Shown here piece by piece: positions 53,972 through 64,000 of a stretch of 64,000 bases of DNA (within the stretch, counting starts at the first letter, position 1; the number at the start of each line of letters is the position of its first letter). Origin of the DNA: Perna viridis (Eukaryota); contig CM074513.1 in the NCBI GenBank assembly GCA_037379345.1, positions 15,376,001 to 15,440,000 on the forward strand, given 5' to 3'. The notes below the pieces were generated by a model. It made no database searches. It was not told where the DNA came from and saw only the letters and a list, made by a program, of their open reading frames with translations. The position numbers and the translations under genes were made by a program.

Positions 53972-56119
53972 AGTCTTCTTCTAACGTGGACCGGAAAAAC
54001 GCTTCAAGATAGTGATATTGAAAATGCCTTAAAATTACTCGATTCAGCTCGGGATTATACCAAAACATTGTCCGAGGGCGTAATCAGATACATTAACCCA
54101 CAAGACTTGGATCCTAAATGGACCCCGGTCGGATCGGGGCACTTTGGATATGTGTATTCAAGTAGGTATGGAGGATCAAGAGTTGCTATCAAAGTCTTCA
54201 AAGAAGAATCCAAATCACAATTTAGAGAGGGAAAAATTCTCTATTCATTAAGCCATGAAAATATAATCGCTTTCCGTGGAACGGGATATTTACCAGTAAA
54301 TATGTTGAAAGAATTGCAACTTGGATTAAACAGTTGTCAGCACAACACTCACTTCCAATCGGAAGAATCAGAAAACTTGTTTCTTGTTATGGAATTCGTC
54401 GATCAGAACCTATTAAGATATGTAGACAATCTGTGGAAACATGAAAGGAAAGGTTTAGGTTTTGACGTTACATGGTCCATAGGTCAACAGATCATTAGTG
54501 CCCTCCAGTACCTTCATAGTTTAGATATTGCACATCGGGACCTCAAGCCCGATAATATCCTCCTTGACGTTGGACCCAAAAGAATTGTAGTTAAACTTGC
54601 CGACTTCGGTTTAGCAACAGATCCTAATCTTATAAATACCGTTCCAACATCTGAAAAGGGAATACTATCTAAAAAATCTTCAAGTTCTTCGGCGTATGGT
54701 TCATATGCTGGAAATGTAAGATGGGGTGCCCCTGAAGTTCGAACTTTTTCATCGGACCACAAGTGTAGCTTAGAAGATTTCAAAGCAGCTGACATATACT
54801 GCTTCGGAAATGTCCTTACATTCACCATGACGGGTGAAAAACCATATGCAGAAATGTCGACTGCAGCAATAGACGACCGTATAGGGGGATTTAATGATAA
54901 TGAGAACGTGTGTGTTCCGTCATTGCCGACGTCTCTAATCGGAGTATTACTTGATGCGACAAATGATTCTATGAAAAAGGCATCGCATGAGAGGCCCAGT
55001 GCCAATAAACTGTTCAATGATTATTTTTCATCTGAGGAAAATCCATACAGACTTCAAATGAATCCAAAGGAGGAAGCAGAGTTTTTCAGCTGTGGGTTTA
55101 TGGACAAGACTGATATTTTTGTTGCCGATTCTTGCATTGACAAAGAAGCAACACAGGTCGGATTTTATGAGTCTGGTATTGAACCGACGGGATACGACCA
55201 CGAAGATTTGGTATGTGAAATTGAAGTTGAAAAAGCCCCATATCGGGACATCCCAGAAAACTGGTCACTAGAACAAACATACAAGGACAAATATGATGAA
55301 TTTCTGGAAAAGGAAAAGAACAAAGAAATAGACAATAATCCTACGGTTTCTCTAAAAGGCTTTCAATTCGCAAGACCAGGAGAAAAGGAACGTCAAAAAA
55401 TTAAATTCAAATTCAAAGAATCGAATTATGTACACCATAGAGCTATGAGGGAAGTCTGGCTTTATACTCTTACTCCGGAAGATAGATTGCAGGAAGTACC
55501 GTGCAAATCTATTGTCAATGAGTATTTCAGCAACGCATATGCTCTCCATGTTGCTGTCTTAACAAATGAAGGGGAAGGGAAACTTCAAAAATTTCTTTTT
55601 GCCCGCCGAGCTAACATACCAGGGATGCCTGCTCCAGGCAAATTTACATGTGGCGCGGTAGAAAGTGCATCAAAGCCAGATTTCAATGTGAAAGAAGATG
55701 GAAAAACATATGTTAACTTGATTAATACTGCCGCTAGAGGACTACAAGAAGAAATCGGAATAGAACTGACTAAGTCAGATCGCCATGCTATATGTTTAAC
55801 GACAGTATACCTGAAATATGATACTCATGAGTGGGGACTCTGTGGGTTTGTGAACTTAAAAGACAAAAGAATTTGTGAAAAGCATAGGCTTAGTGCTGAT
55901 TCTATTAAAGATATATTTAGTTCAGGACCAAAGGACAAATTTGAGCACCAGACACTTACCTTTGTAGACTTCGACTTAAAAACGATGGTCGAGTTTGTAT
56001 TTAATAACCACGAAAATTTTGCTAGCTCGACAAGACTCGTTGTTGTGAAAACTTTGCAGGCATTCTTTGGATGGCAAATAGTCCAACAAGAATTTGAATC
56101 GATGAGCTTCGGGAAATAA
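53972..56119 (+). CDS. Intronless Ser/Thr protein kinase fused to a C-terminal Nudix-like domain (start unresolved)
   Basis: Open frame from 53972 to 56119. Kinase motifs VGSGHFGYVY, VAIK, LVMEF, HRDLKPDNILL, KLADFG, VRWGAPE, ADIYCFG, RPSA. C-terminal region FLFARRA..PGKFTCGAVES..TAARGLQEEIGIEL is a variant of the Nudix box REUXEEXGU. AATAAA overlaps the stop codon. Confidence 0.85.
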   Translation, partial: SLLLTWTGKTLQDSDIENALKLLDSARDYTKTLSEGVIRYINPQDLDPKWTPVGSGHFGYVYSSRYGGSRVAIKVFKEESKSQFREGKILYSLSHENIIAFRGTGYLPVNMLKELQLGLNSCQHNTHFQSEESENLFLVMEFVDQNLLRYVDNLWKHERKGLGFDVTWSIGQQIISALQYLHSLDIAHRDLKPDNILLDVGPKRIVVKLADFGLATDPNLINTVPTSEKGILSKKSSSSSAYGSYAGNVRWGAPEVRTFSSDHKCSLEDFKAADIYCFGNVLTFTMTGEKPYAEMSTAAIDDRIGGFNDNENVCVPSLPTSLIGVLLDATNDSMKKASHERPSANKLFNDYFSSEENPYRLQMNPKEEAEFFSCGFMDKTDIFVADSCIDKEATQVGFYESGIEPTGYDHEDLVCEIEVEKAPYRDIPENWSLEQTYKDKYDEFLEKEKNKEIDNNPTVSLKGFQFARPGEKERQKIKFKFKESNYVHHRAMREVWLYTLTPEDRLQEVPCKSIVNEYFSNAYALHVAVLTNEGEGKLQKFLFARRANIPGMPAPGKFTCGAVESASKPDFNVKEDGKTYVNLINTAARGLQEEIGIELTKSDRHAICLTTVYLKYDTHEWGLCGFVNLKDKRICEKHRLSADSIKDIFSSGPKDKFEHQTLTFVDFDLKTMVEFVFNNHENFASSTRLVVVKTLQAFFGWQIVQQEFESMSFGK

Positions 56120-56537
56120 ATGTAATATTTCATTAAAATCTTATATGTACTGTATTTTTTAGTTTAACTAGCTAATAACTTAAGAATCCAAGATGCAATT
56201 GTTATCAAATGTAAATGAAATACTCGTAGATTGTTTCAATTTCAGCATTTTTAATTTTCAGTTATTTTTAACAGACGTCAAACAACGTTATTTAAAATAA
56301 TTTTGCAACATGGTCCATTTTCGGTATATTTTTTAAGTTTGTCTTTTTATTGAGACTACTCTATACAGCCACATTATTGTTGTCGTCAAAACTTTCTATA
56401 AACATTCATCTCAAATTCTTCTCAAATTGGTACTCAACCACCTCATACTAAATTTTTAAAAGTGGTAATTCTACTTTTCCACAATGTATCTAGCATGTCA
56501 TTAATTCCCTCACTTACTTACCGCTACAGACAGGCCT

Positions 56538-56705
56538 TTCGAAATTATCGGGCGTTATTCAAATCATACGTCGTTTGACAATCGGAAAATGTCGCGTAAA
56601 ATTATTCACTTTTTCCCGACTTTGCAAGATTCTTGCATTTTTCTTAGAGGGCTGACCGCAGTGTCTGGAATGAATTTCGAACGTCAGACGCTGTTCGGGG
56701 CTTAG
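56538..56705 (+). repeat. Dispersed repeat; a diverged second copy lies at about 59440-59605 in LPMO intron 3
   Basis: Shared collinear blocks ATTCAAA..ACGTCGTTTGA.AATCG..AATGTC..ATTCACTTTTTC..ACGTC.GA.GCTGTTC. Confidence 0.7.
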
Positions 56706-57313
56706 TTGGTTGTTGCATCTGCAAGTCAGCAAATTGATGTTTCGGCTCGTGAGTGAATCGATATACTTTCTAAACCAGATATTTCTTAAATTCGCTTTGT
56801 ATAAGTTTAAATGCATTTTGAACCATAGTAAACCGAATCGTTTACTAAACAGAAAATATTCTAAAGTCTAATAGGAGTTCGGTTAGATAGATTGCATTGT
56901 GTCGATTGAACGATTTTTTTTCAAAGGACCAGGCTATACATTGAGTCATGTCTAAACCAAAGCTCTTCGGTTTAGACAGGTTTTTGGTTTCCATTGTTCA
57001 TTTTTATACATTTGATTGAAAAAGGGACTTTAAAAAGTGTCTGGTTTGGACAGGTTATCGGATTTTCCAGGGCTCGGTTTAGATAGGTTTTACTATATTT
57101 GTTTAGATAGTTTACATGTCAACATCAATTTGTAAAGATACTACTGGTATATTAATACAGGTTTTATATTTGTTAATAATTATTTAATTAATTATGGTTT
57201 CCTAATTAGTATGCACCCCATTACTGCCCATTACATTAAATGTGTCAGTCTAGACAAACGTGTTTCTATGCAAGTTAAGCAATGTGACGTTTGCTTTGTG
57301 AAAAAGGAATATA

Positions 57314-60300
57314 ATGGCGGTTATTTCATCAGTATCATACGTGGTATTTGTTCTTTACTTTACATTACCCGTCATAAATGGCCACGGAATGATGATAGAA
57401 CCAGCCATGAGGTCGTCACTATGGAGATTTGACTACCCGGATGCTGTTCCAAATTACAATGACAATGGATTAAACTGTGGAGGATTCACGGTAAGATTTA
57501 TGCAAGAGTCACGTACGTTGTACTTTTTTTAAACTAATTTGTGTAGACAAGTCATATAACAAATTTATATACATTCCCTTTAAAGAATCGGGTTTGCCAA
57601 ATTCTTTATGATTTTAAGTTTTCTCATAATAAAGTATTAAAGTATTCCCAAATTCTTGTAGGAATCGAAAAATGTAACCGAATGAGACAAACAAATTTCG
57701 ACGTGTCATTCATATCAGGTGCCGGAAACTGAAGAGCAAAAAATTCTTTAATTTTTTTTCATTTTCTGTTTGATCATATTAAGTGCTTGGAAACTTTAGA
57801 CAACCATTTAACTTTATTTACGATTGTGTGTCTATCAAGTAGTCTTACTACTTGCTTATATCTCTGTGAATTAAAAACAACCTTTAAAGAACAAAAAATA
57901 TCTATACAGCCATCAATGCCAAATACACGTCAGTTTTTTTAAAACTAAAATACGAGGATATCAAATTTTTGTCTTGGTGACTTTTGGTCATTTACAAATT
58001 TGTGTTTTGACCTGTGAAATTTGACCCATTTCAGAACCAACATGAAAAACAGCATGGCAGATGTGGAGTATGTGGCGATCCGTACCAAGGTCCAAGAGAT
58101 AATGAATTCGGTGGAAAGTAAGTCAAGACTGTAAGATAATAATATACGGAATTTACCTCCGATATGAATAGGTGTTTTCTTACAGTTTTCAGTTTTTATA
58201 GTAAATTCTTGCCATGTTACCTTTACGAAAAGAAAAAAAAACACACGCTCACCAAAGACATGAAGTCGTGTTCATTATTATGCGTATATAATGTAAATAA
58301 ATAGTGATAAATTTCCTCGAAGACATGATAACAATATCTAGACGGTTTAGCGGAAACCAAAATGAAAAGAGTGTTGAAAAGGGGAAGAATATAATTATAG
58401 GATTAAAAAAAGAAGAATATAATTGTGGGGTAAAAAAAGAAGAATATAATAATGGGGTAAAAAAGGAAGAATGTAATGATGGTGAAGAGTCATCGAAATG
58501 GAAGGGCACGATTTTCAAAAAAAATAATTTCAATAAATAAACTATTTTCCTCCAAATTGGAATGGGATACATTCAGAGGCAACATGGGTACCGTCCCTAT
58601 TCATTTTAGGTTTGACAGAACATGAACTAAAAGCATTAAATGAAACACATTCCAAAAGGAAACAAAAAATGCACATCCATCAATGAAAGGCAAAGTTGTT
58701 ATAAATCACTATAAACATACAATATTTTTGCTGGAAAGTGACATCAAAATTGCCAGACATTATAAGCATCATTTATTTTCTAAGGAGAAAATAACGAGCC
58801 TTCGATTGCATGTGAAATCAAATCAATGGAAGGTTCCGTTTCAGAAAATTTAAAATTGGGGATGCCAGGCTACTATTTGCTAATTCTTTTAACAAAATTT
58901 TTGCCCACAATTGACAATTCTTAAAGGGGGAGAGTCTAACCCCCGGTTCTCTATCCCTAGATCCACCAATGAAAGAAAAATTGCTCTGTTGTACTTATAT
59001 ATTTAATATTCCTTTACGAAATTATAAACGGGGTCTGTTTTCCTTCCAGATATGCAAAAGGAATTATTGCTAAAACGTATAAAGCTGGACAATATATAAC
59101 CGTTGTATCGGATATAACAGCCAACCATGGTGGATTTATTGAAGTTAGGCTATGCCCACACAATAATGCACGAGCACCAGTTTCCCAGAGGTGCTTAAAC
59201 CAAAATTTATTGCAAATTAAAGGCCATGGAACCAGATACCTATTAACATCCAGTAAAAAGAGAAATTTCAGAATACGTCACACAGTTAAGCTTCCAGATT
59301 ACATCACCTGTAGACAATGTGTTCTGCAGTGGTTTTGGAAGGCCGGTTAGTAAGTATGCGACTTTGACTTTTTGTTCTAATATTGCTTCAGATTTCACGC
59401 GACGACAGACGTTTGATTTCTTGCTTACTGCAGTCATACCTTTTAAAATTCTCAGACATAATTCAAACCAAACGTCGTTTGAAAATCGAATAATGTCTCT
59501 TAAAGTCATTCACTTTTTCTTGACTGCAGTAGTCTTACATTTTTATTAAAGGGGTGGCTCCAGCGTCTATTATGAGTTTTGGACGTCGGATGCTGTTCTG
59601 AGCTTGATATTTCTGATCAATTAATTATCGACTTTTTTGTTTTGTTTTTGTTTTGTTTGTTTATTTTTGTTTGTTTGTTTGCTTGTTTTGTTATTGAGAT
59701 TTATAACTAAATGGTTAAAAATCCGTTAGACAGTGTGTGACGGTATGAAACTGAAATAAAATTAGAGAAGTTTAACTTTTTTATTGTCACGTTGTATTTC
59801 CTTAAATTGCTTGATTGAATCTCGTTTACTTCAAATTTTCAAATTAATAAGTGTGCCGTGGTTGCCCAGTATAACACCACGTTACTATTACAAGTATTCG
59901 TAAACGAAAGTACTAAAACATATTTATTACCAAGCCTGAAATACGTGTTTCAAGTAGTAACCTCTCATCCTCATCATTAAAATAAAAAAACAAATGAAGA
60001 AGATCTGAATAAAAAAATGTGTACAAGAAGTTCTCAAAACTATCGCTATTGATAGTCAAATCAACCATAAAAATAACGAACCAAACAAGATGCCTGCTTC
60101 CAGATTTCTAACAAGTAAAAATTGACATAACTAACGATCATATAAAAAAACGAGATAAAAATCAAAGACAATCGTCAAATAGATCTAATTAATATCACTT
60201 GCAAAATTTAGTAAAAGACGGAAAAAAATTAAAATACTAGAAATGATACTGATTTGGTAAAAGGAAACCCTGGTTGGTAGATGGTAACTTTACATGCTAA

Positions 60301-63300
60301 TAATATATCACGATGTTTATATCTTGATTTGTAGGTCAGCATAATGGGATAAATCCTGTTACAAATAAAGAATGCATAGGATGTGGAAGACAGGAAGAGT
60401 TTATAAACTGTGCTGATATTGCCATTACTGATGAGTTTGGACAGTTTCCAACTCCAGCACCTCAATTTCAGGCAACAACGCCAATGCCAATGTATGACCA
60501 GTTTCTATTTCAACAGAATGGAATGTATCCGGATTATTTCGATGAATTCAGTCCTTTCTATGGTGATCCGTCATTTTTAAACCCGTTCAACAGCCCATTT
60601 TTAAACAGCGAATTTGCAAGCTTGAATCAACAATTTGGCAATAACGAAATGCAAAATCCTAGCATGCATACCAATAATGGAATGCAGAACCGTGGTATGA
60701 AAACTAATATTGGAATGCAAAATCCATCAATGCACGCTAATAAAGGAATGCTGCAGAATACAGGTTTGCCTAGTAATAAAAGAATACAGAATCAAGGAAT
60801 GCATTCTAATAATCACATGCAAAATCCAAGTATGCTAGCCAACAACAAAATGCAAAATCCCTCAATGTTTGTCAATAACAGAATGCAAAATTCGGGAATG
60901 ATTGCAAATAACGGAATACAAACTCAAAATATATATGCCAATAATGGAATGCAACCCACAGGCATGCACAATATCTACCTGAAAGACCCATTAAGAGGAC
61001 TACCTCAACAAACGCCACAAAACGTGGGACCACGAGCAATGGTCCCAACAACTGCGGTAACCAGATCTCGTCCTTACACTCAAACTAGATATCAAACCAT
61101 TAACACCCGACCTACAGTAGCTAATAGTAACAGACGACCCTTAATACCAAGAAATAGAAGACCGGTTGTACCACGAACCAACAGTCCCCAAGTCAAACTA
61201 AATACAAACAAACAAATGCGTCCAGCTCTTGCTGATAACCAAAGAGTACCACCACAACCAAGCAGTAGTATTTCATATTCAACAAGAGCGCCAACGATTG
61301 GTCCTCAAGTTGTACAAAGAAAACTTATAACACAGCAGGAACCTAATTTTGGAGATTCTGATGTGGCTGAGGCTTTCGAGGATCTAATGGACAACGAAGG
61401 AGAGTTTTTAAAAAATATGGATTTTTGGAATGATTTTAACAAATTATTAAACATGTCTTCTCCAGAAACTAAACAAGCCCTTTATGAAATTGCAGATGAT
61501 GCGGAAAATTTGCAAGAATTTCATCGAAATGTCAGGCTTATGATGCAGATGATGGGTGACGGAGTAGACCCAAAAACTGCCGTGGAATTAGGAATTGACT
61601 CTGATGATTCTCTGGATATCAATTGGCTTTTAAAAGAAGCTAAAGAGCAAGGTTTGGACAGTGACGAATTGAGTCTTTTAGAGGACGCAAAAGATAAACG
61701 TGATAGTGGTGAAAGTGATAATAACGAAGAGAATGAAGAGAGTAGCACACAAGAAAAGCAAAAAATGCAATATTATGGCAACAATGATGAAAATCGATTG
61801 TTAGATGATTCGGGTATTGAAAGTGATGATAGTGCTCAATCCGATGGTAAAAACGATAAATTCGATTACAGTGATAGGGAAAGTTTTGAAAAGGAATATA
61901 ATTCTTTATCATCCGAAGAAGATCACTCTGAAATGGCAAACAACGATTTAAACAAGGATTATGATAGTGACGAGGATAGCTACCAACACAATGAGATCAA
62001 ACTTAATGTAAAAACCAGCAGCTCTAGTTTGAACTGGGGTTATAACCAACCAACTCCAACACCATCATCTGTTAGAACAAACCCATGGAACGAGAATTCT
62101 TTATACCGATCTAACGTTGACTACGATGACAAAGACGTAAATGTAGAGGGCGACTCTGTCAATGCATTTAAAAAGATTGTTCCAGGTTTCACAGAGAAAA
62201 CACCGTCCTATAATTACATGGAAATACAAAATAATAAATTACAGGTGAATACGTTTGGGAGCGATACTAATGACTATTCAGAATCGGAAAACGAAAAGGA
62301 AAATGAAGGAGATGATGTCGGGGATGGTGATGAAAACAAGAAGTGGAATAAATTTTCAGAGGAAAAGGAAGATAAACAACAGAATGAGCATTGGTCGGCG
62401 GGAGCTGTACCCGATATTTACGCAGGCACAGTCATTGTAACTTCTCGCAAGAGAGGTTCAAGGATAGACAATACTGGAAAGGAAAAAGAAAATGAAAATG
62501 AAATAGAAAATGAGGATAAAATATCTTCAAAGAATTCAAAACTTCTTGGAGTTAAAAAGGGCAAGAAAGTTTCGTCGTGGGGCGGTCAGGAAGGTAATTC
62601 TGCTGAAAAAGCCGAAAATGAAGTTGTAGAAAAATCCCCGGATGCAGAAAATGAAAAACCGGAAAAAGGTAGCTTGGATAAACAAAAAGAAGACGAAAAC
62701 TCAAACAACCTTATAGGTTTAACTACAATTTATCAGGAAGAAGGTGATGGAAAATCGGCAAATGAAGAAAATGAACTTAAACAATCTGTGAAAGAAAATA
62801 GCAAGAAATCTCTTAAAGAGGAAAATGAAATGAAAACGCTGAAGGAAGAAAATGAAATTAAATCACACAAAGAAGAAAATGAAATGAAATCACCGGAGGA
62901 AGAAATAAAAATAAAAACACCAAAGGAGGAAAACTCATTTGGTGAAATGAAAGTAGATTTGGCTGGCCATATTGGGGACAGTAATATAGTCAAACCAGAA
63001 GAAGACATTGGTGAATCAAAGAGTAACTCAGTTTTTATGAATAATCAGCAGTTTAGAAATGTTGACGATCCTAGCGAACCTGTTAAAAGTGCATCGAATT
63101 CCATGGGAGTAAAGCCGTTTATTGGTGATTCGCCAAAATTTATGGGAAATATGAAACAAGCACAAATGTTTTATCCTACGGCCTTTCCAGCTATGAACTC
63201 GTTTACGACCAGAGGTTCTCCTTTTATGATGATAGATAACAGGTATTCTACCCAGTATCAACAAACGCCCAATCAACAACATACTACAATGTCCGGTTTC

Positions 63301-63759
63301 CGAAAGCGTGTTCAGAACAGAATATCTAAGTCAATGGGTCATAATATTGATGATCCTGTCATGACACAACCTTTGACTCTCAAAGTCAAAATAAAATCTA
63401 CTAGAAAATCTAAAAAAGGATTATCTCCTAATCTTTCCAAACTGGTACTCAAGATGTTTATGAATAGTAAATCGGGTGCACCTCCTTGCGATGGAAATCT
63501 AAAATCGGTCTGCCGCCCAGTAAAGATGTGGAGCAAATATCAACAGGTGGCCGATTGGTGTACATCACTTTGTCCATATGGTCAGTGTCCGTCCGCTGTA
63601 TGCAAGTGTCAATGCACAGGCAGTCCCATGGGATCAGTAGGGCAGAAAAAATGTCGTGCAACTAATACTTACAAACAAAATTCGGGTGAACTCGATCAAT
63701 GGTGTCAAAAGACTTGCAGCAAAGGTGATTGCCCAGCATTGCTCTGTGTATGTTCATGA
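57314..63759 (+). CDS. Secreted AA15-type lytic polysaccharide monooxygenase with a giant low-complexity linker and two C-terminal Cys modules, about 1326 aa
   Basis: Exons 57314-57490, 58035-58117, 59050-59345, 60335-63759; total 3981 nt in frame. A 23-aa signal peptide precedes H-GMMIEPAMRSSLWR, then NDNGLNCGG, GRCGVCGD, TANHGG (second His), CRQCVLQWFW and CIGCGRQEEFINCADIAI. Confidence 0.92.
58384..58485 (+). repeat. Minisatellite of about 27 bp, 3-4 copies, in LPMO intron 2
   Basis: Units approximating GAAGAATATAATNNTGGGGTAAAAAAA. Confidence 0.7.
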
Positions 63760-64000
63760 AACCTTGTAAACTTGAAGTGAAGCTTCAAGTTTAAATCTCT
63801 TACGCATATTTTTTTTTATTCTAGCGTTTCCGAAATAACAGTATTTGTTCTAAGTATTGGAGATCGATGTTTTGTCCTGTGACTTATGTATTTGGTTCTA
63901 TACGGACAGTTCTGTTGATTGTATGTTGTTTCAAATCTGATATTTCGCCACATAGTTACCTAATACGTAGCTAGAAATGAAGCATTTGAAAAAATCATTA

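Follow-up and report, generated by a model that had tools for sequence, protein, structure and literature searches.

An AA15 LPMO gene of Perna viridis whose long charged tail matches an orphan protein of the shell proteome

Introduction

The locus studied here lies in a 64,000-nucleotide stretch of the Perna viridis genome (GenBank assembly GCA_037379345.1, contig CM074513.1, positions 15,376,001 to 15,440,000), hereafter the window, to which positions refer unless a locus is given otherwise. A preliminary description, made from the letters alone, read it as a giant secreted AA15 LPMO carrying a shell-matrix-like tail of about 1000 residues, and proposed that a single polypeptide couples oxidative remodelling of chitin to Ca2+ or mineral binding, or to the formation of condensates, in shell, periostracum or byssus. 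This raises the question of whether such a protein exists as one chain and, if so, where it resides and what it might do there. The question matters because shell proteomics treats PF03067 proteins as passive chitin binders. In this report, we follow the gene from its exons and transcript to the catalytic domain, the tail, the published shell proteomes and its molluscan relatives.

Gene model and transcript

The gene is real and is transcribed as one unit, which is built from the following coding exons.

57314..57490, forward strand: exon 1 (coding part), with the candidate signal peptide, His1 and platform Tyr25; joint seen in assembled runs
58035..58117, forward strand: exon 2, AA15 domain with a CGVCGD motif
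59050..59345, forward strand: exon 3, which carries Ala88 (A111) and the second brace His90 (H113) in the AA15 core; joints seen in assembled runs
60335..63759, forward strand: exon 4, 3425 nt, unbroken, with the end of the AA15 domain, the 1110-aa tail and the stop codon

These exons join in phases 0, 2 and 1 into 3981 nt encoding 1326 aa with no internal stop, across introns of 544, 932 and 989 nt that are all GT..AG. The assembled runs that bear on splicing are RNA by our guess, none being on record as such. In a first set, each of the three introns is a joint in three of four runs; of the second set, also of four, a single run shows the joint of intron 3, run X15 covers the introns and looks DNA-like, and another run contains no part of the gene. 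One contig of run X2 (contig 18, 4762 nt) reaches from 57088 past 64000, contains each of the three joints and leaves exon 4 unbroken. In-phase splicing into one protein, as first proposed, is therefore upheld by the open frame, the joints and this contig. The same contig rules out introns inside exon 4, so the objection raised in advance by the preliminary description—that transcripts might skip most of this exon—fails. The 16 coding variants in exon 4 comprise nine synonymous changes, seven missense changes and no stop.

Several further observations concern the same region. The spanning contig reaches 226 nt upstream of the ATG (57088-57313), a stretch that contains several upstream ATGs; an in-frame stop is found immediately before 57302. 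Dispersed repeats at 56500-56700, 56970-57060 and 59470-59610 attract many loose-ended contigs, and one repeat is common to the regions of 56640 and 59573. Contig depth rises steeply over the 3' part of the gene (60993-64000) in runs X11 and X13, where cover thicker than upstream starts at 60993 and 61220. A tail-only transcript may lie behind this rise, but 3' bias is the simpler reading because the depth of contigs cannot be used to compare parts of one gene, and the points of onset vary from run to run.

Catalytic domain

By sequence, the N-terminal part of the protein is an AA15 LPMO with an intact copper site, predicted to be secreted.

57314-57382, forward strand: candidate signal peptide, aa 1-23, a hydrophobic stretch before H24
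57383-57385, forward strand: mature His1 (H24), aligned with residue 1 of 5MSZ via the Mytilus orthologue
59126-59128, forward strand: second brace His90 (H113), in TANH
60335..60426, forward strand: end of the AA15 domain, with N189 (mature 166), E206 and axial F208

Exon 3 alone matches Pfam LPMO_10 (E 1.3e-8), and the M. coruscus orthologue, used as a stand-in, has 5MSZ (TdAA15A) as its sole PDB match (E 2.5e-46), starting at residue 24. The histidine brace is as the preliminary description had it: the N-terminal His, the His of TANH and the Phe of QEEF are H24, H113 and F208, equivalent to His1, His90 and axial Phe185. Ala88 is A111, platform Tyr25 is Y48 and second-sphere Glu183 is E206, while ten Cys lie within aa 24-216, one of them shifted inside the last loop. 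The two database matches together with the Ala, the brace, the axial Phe and the ten Cys likewise bear out the assignment to AA15. TdAA15A (PMC5823890) shares the His brace, the Ala, the equivalent of its Tyr24 and the ten Cys, and differs in being a catalytic domain only, with axial Tyr184 and a retained Tyr166.

That last residue marks the main peculiarity of the domain. N189 takes the place of the second platform aromatic, which is Tyr166 in TdAA15A (PMC5823890) and Trp188 in TcLPMO15-1 (PMC9156745), a change not mentioned in the preliminary description. This aromatic is missing in 15 of 15 rows of the molluscan subclade described below; among the 41 other rows, 34 retain it, four lack it and three gave no reading. 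Because this aromatic is lost, the substrate may differ.

The P. viridis genome contains at least 20 AA15 exon matches, among them the following loci (handles of our genome survey).

G000:C3:15444042-15453285 (L026, L027), reverse strand: nearest AA15 paralogue, tail-to-tail with the gene and 4.3 kb downstream
G000:C4:18110421-18111320 (L008), forward strand: AA15 paralogue with a hydrophobic C terminus (membrane or GPI type)
G000:C15:13825921-13826202 (L003), reverse strand: AA15 without the second brace His
G000:C2:56690982-56691248 (L015), reverse strand: AA15 without the second brace His

The nearest paralogue is 49% identical over exon 3, has a Q/R/S-rich tail with twin Cys modules, and is the orthologue of M. 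coruscus CAC5399938 and of scallop proteins. The survey of the second brace His covered 16 of the 20 loci.

The missing aromatic and the two paralogues devoid of the second brace His both favor an alternative that we consider unlikely, namely that the protein is a shell-matrix component that cuts no chitin and acts instead as a Cu-binding structural linker of chitin and protein, on another glycan, or as a source of H2O2 for matrix cross-linking. LPMOs release H2O2 when free of substrate. By our own reading of the listed sequences, both brace His are also absent in two PF03067 proteins from the shell of Tridacna crocea (PMC8217771), so this fold appears to be used noncatalytically in shells. 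Against such a role here, the copper-site residues, the second-sphere Glu and the ten Cys are all kept across mytilids and unionids.

Tail and C-terminal modules

The remainder of the protein is a succession of zones that differ in charge and in conservation.

60427..60642, forward strand: F/P/Y-rich linker, aa 217-288, its first part well conserved in Mytilus
60643..61344, forward strand: basic block, aa 289-522, with 11-aa M/N/Q repeats (33-nt period) and then a P/R/T-rich part
61345..63078, forward strand: acidic region, aa 523-1100, net charge -72, with short conserved islands
61366..61563, forward strand: conserved island, aa 530-595, a helix by low-confidence prediction, without known family
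about 62790-62930, forward strand: 9-aa E/K repeats (27-nt period), not kept in Mytilus
63289..63486, forward strand: basic block, aa 1171-1236, with a conserved predicted helix at its end
63487..63756, forward strand: twin 6-Cys modules, C-X15/16-C-X3-C-X4-C-X4-C-X-C, and an additional pair of Cys

As judged from the alignments, orthologues retain the basic-acidic-basic order, the likely helical island at aa 530-595 and a number of short islands; the M/F/P block and both kinds of repeat, M/N/Q and E/K, are particular to the lineage. Per 50 aa, the residues identical to those of M. coruscus number 35-43 in aa 1-250, 8-10 in aa 301-450, 25-30 in aa 551-650, 24 in aa 751-800 and 6-11 in aa 1001-1150, and the C-terminal end reaches 35/50 and 22/26; against Mytilus, blocks of the AA15 domain stand at 35-43/50, repeat zones at 6-11/50 and aa 551-600 at 30/50. 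The zones listed in the preliminary description thus exist, but several are species-specific repeats poorly matched in Mytilus, and the tail, with its conserved islands, is not of low complexity throughout. The basic blocks carry net charges of +6 and +17 (aa 289-522, whose Mytilus counterpart is a shorter, R/N-rich basic block) and +13 (aa 1170-1236). A search with the island at aa 530-595 gave no atlas match.

The acidic tract is also present, although its acidity is only moderate: the 578 residues of aa 523-1100 have a pI of 4.36, and the mature protein one of 5.55. With 10.2% D and 14.5% E in this region, the protein does not fall among Asp-rich SMPs of the Aspein/Asprich type. In those acidic SMPs, Asp makes up about half of the residues. 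S-x-E sites (FAM20C-type) show no enrichment, with 10 against 8.8 expected; the same applies to four mytilid rows, and enrichment is weak in two unionid rows.

Some 1020 aa separate the AA15 enzyme from the pair of Cys modules, which have spacings of 15-3-4-4-1 and 16-3-4-4-1. Searches of Pfam, PDB and NCBIfam gave no match, and there was one atlas match, with a score of 0.75. A model of the modules reached a pLDDT of 67, and neither Foldseek (best E 5.9) nor VIA (best Z 2.2) matched it; a low-confidence model without structural match does not show a new fold, and we dropped this idea. The module recurs in four other loci of the P. viridis genome, on two GH18 chitinases with three copies each, and, in 20 copies, on protein P0014 (ENA record, 1459 aa), which is without a Pfam domain. 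Because the module sits with chitinases, the twin modules likely bind shell chitin.

Shell, byssus and foot proteomes

The published P. viridis shell proteome lists an orphan with an internal repeat, Unigene25503 (683 aa), as having no homologue or else a pearl-oyster chitin-binding protein at E 0.039 (PMC6641155). This orphan is the tail of the LPMO, because residues 644-1326 match it.

61708..63756, forward strand: Unigene25503, aa 644-1326; its first 400 residues read as aa 644 onward, and the length of 683 fits
62077-62109, forward strand: shell peptide of Unigene25503, aa 767-777
63214-63303, forward strand: shell peptides of Unigene25503 within aa 1146-1175 (at 1146 and 1156)

Its peptides are listed in all four fractions, with three in the soluble and two in the insoluble matrix of the myostracum, and three in each matrix of nacre (PMC6641155). 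The protein is thus very probably a true component of the shell matrix, present at least by its tail. Of the locations first suggested, the shell is the one that gained support, the search of its proteome having been positive for the tail. Byssus is without support: the readable supplements of the P. viridis byssus proteome gave no motif match (PMC6508894), nor did those of a foot-gene study, where the gene could stand unannotated (PMC7971044). That all clear orthologues come from mytilids, which make byssus, would suit a byssus or foot protein, but these negative searches and the similar protein present in unionids make such a role highly improbable. The shell signal could also be carry-over from a protein whose true role is chitin turnover or defense in soft tissue, mucus or gut, considering that the same proteome lists the cellular proteins myosin, filamin and GAPDH (PMC6641155) and that AA15s are gut-enriched in Thermobia (PMC5823890). 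We find this very unlikely: tail peptides occur in every fraction, the architecture is predicted to be secreted, the database searched was a mantle transcriptome, from which the Unigene25503 fragment comes (PMC6641155), and the neighboring paralogue is found in nacre too. The latter is represented in the nacre insoluble matrix by one peptide each from its LPMO domain and its tail, and L008 matches Unigene29213, with one peptide in the nacre soluble matrix (PMC6641155).

The claim of a single polypeptide holds at the level of the transcript, as the spanning contig indicates; peptides of the catalytic half are absent from the shell listing. For aa 24-643, where a predicted tryptic digest gives 30 peptides of 7-25 aa, five motifs had no match in four supplement files, within the first 400 characters of long fields (PMC6641155). 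Listing of peptides from the C-terminal half alone, together with dibasic sites at 640-641 and 890-892, might point to a Pif-like precursor cut after secretion, with the acidic C-terminal half and its Cys modules entering the mineral and the LPMO half being discarded or working at another site, such as the shell edge. This bias is, however, fully explained by the transcript fragment searched, which starts at aa 644. The dibasic sites are moreover not preserved as such in orthologues, and the LPMO domain of the neighboring paralogue does reach nacre, so that a cut precursor seems decidedly unlikely.

Other shells yielded less. No trace of an orthologue was present in the supplements of the M. 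galloprovincialis shell proteome (PMC4517812) or in the readable supplements of a unionid/Modiolus shell dataset (PMC6542584). P. viridis nacre itself is etched by chitinase, and chitinase-3 occurs in the same proteome (PMC6641155).

Distribution and phylogeny

Whole-tail homologues, mytilid where named, were found in M. coruscus, M. californianus, M. trossulus, M. galloprovincialis and M. edulis, plus a 1093-aa record. When 1.84 billion representatives were searched with a profile, 93 matches came up, two of them full-length. Among 66 candidates, 31 were long AA15s of 647-2060 aa (10 exceeding 1100 aa), from snails, Solemya, oysters, unionids and mussels. Long-tailed AA15s are therefore common in molluscs, and the "giant" size stressed in the preliminary description is not unusual. 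What is rarer is the charge: a 200-aa window with a net charge of -25 or lower occurs in five of 33 long AA15s, and a strongly acidic tail combined with two Cys modules is confined to the same three mytilid and two unionid proteins, the latter from Sinanodonta (916 aa) and Potamilus (923 aa).

In a quick tree built from 56 LPMO domains after 46 partial or near-duplicate rows had been dropped, the protein belongs to a 15-row molluscan clade (SH-aLRT 96) whose members all have two Cys modules, and a 17-row tree recovers the same clade at 97/97. Unionids carry a similar acidic form that may be orthologous to the mytilid genes. The grouping of the two scores 7.5/30 on the joined alignment and 89/89 on the C terminus alone, and an AU test of their orthology, run with few replicates, did not discriminate. 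Matches between the unionid proteins and the island are weak, at 7.4 and 6.2 bits (the best of 1000 shuffles scores 7.4), and were not found by BLASTP; an alignment-query search dominated by low-complexity candidates yielded just these two unionid proteins. By locus number, they adjoin a same-clade paralogue, as in Mytilus. Modelled as a whole, the unionid form (pLDDT 36) gives no more than a hint of helices.

Discussion

The architecture described here is less new than first claimed, because Mytilus orthologues are already annotated, long-tailed molluscan AA15s are common and shell proteins with PF03067 and low-complexity tails are known. The Mytilus models filed as "chitin-binding type-4 domain-containing" (CAC5399936, XP_052100864, XP_063432002, VDI31704 and CAG2257224) are full-length orthologues, 1153-1190 aa when complete, with a similar domain order, charge blocks and islands; they differ in the repeats of the basic and late acidic zones and carry automatic annotation only. 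Among the matches listed in open-access text, no paper names the six accessions searched, none concerns the gene itself or LPMO activity in shell, and nothing relevant came up for the accessions of a P. martensii chitin-binding protein; the main texts of PMC13190495 and PMC8194122 do not mention LPMOs. PF03067 proteins have been treated as a family of the mantle secretome in which low-complexity domains are gained (PMC5400390), and LPMO_10 is a listed SMP domain in Magallana gigas, filed as chitin-binding (PMC11464482). The Tridacna proteins Tcr_684209 (about 2461 aa) and Tcr_714405 similarly combine PF03067 with a low-complexity tail and occur in shell, although their tails are G/P/T-rich rather than acidic, and they too are filed as chitin-binding (PMC8217771). 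Oyster CgCBP was considered as a relative and rejected, since it is a ChtBD2 protein.

Two better-known systems offer further parallels. Insect LPMO15-1 (TcLPMO15-1 and OfLPMO15-1), which acts in cuticle chitin turnover, has a signal peptide, an AA15 domain with axial Phe and the same domain order, ending in two copies of a C-X15-C-X3-C-X6-9-C-X4-C-X1-C repeat (PMC9156745). The P. viridis protein has X4 where the insect repeat has X6-9, a C-terminal part of 1110 aa instead of about 120, and a mineral matrix instead of a moulting cuticle as its site (PMC9156745). We take it to resemble LPMO15-1 in layout and do not count it as a member, because Asn (N189) replaces Trp188 on the platform and the tail is so long. 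C-terminal extensions as such occur in about a third of AA15s (PMC5823890). Pif/BMSP are likewise large secreted matrix proteins with chitin-contacting and charged mineral-contacting parts, but they have VWA and chitin-binding domains and no enzyme (PMC11291548).

We propose, as the likeliest reading, though one about evenly poised between right and wrong, that a chitin-tethered AA15 LPMO trims the chitin scaffold of the shell while a charged spacer holds the protein in the mineral. Removal of the signal peptide would expose His1 and allow Cu to be bound. The C-terminal Cys modules would then tether the protein to chitin, compensating for the missing platform aromatic, and the catalytic domain would nick chitin oxidatively during matrix deposition, creating new ends for GH18 chitinase as well as carboxylated ends. 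The charged spacer and its conserved islands would bind Ca2+, mineral precursor or matrix proteins, so that the protein becomes trapped in mineral. A bolder version, to which we give a distinctly smaller chance, is that nacre is built with an active copper LPMO, in which an old mytilid/unionid gene unites a 6-Cys chitin tether, nucleation-ready carboxylated ends and an acidic mineral-binding arm. If true, this would be an animal LPMO that constructs a mineral skeleton rather than one that digests or moults. In any event, an orphan tail is now joined to an intact LPMO, which allows two questions to be put directly: does oxidation shape the chitin of the shell, and does a single chain carry both enzyme and mineral-binding functions? 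Two further leads are a molluscan subclade of AA15s whose substrate face is altered and a 6-Cys module that the protein shares with chitinases.

Upstream of the gene, the window contains an intronless frame of 715 codons on the forward strand (53972-56119) with a Pkinase domain (Pfam E 2e-29). The approximately 340 aa that follow the kinase match nothing in Pfam, NCBIfam or PDB, and within them a short stretch resembles a Nudix box by eye.
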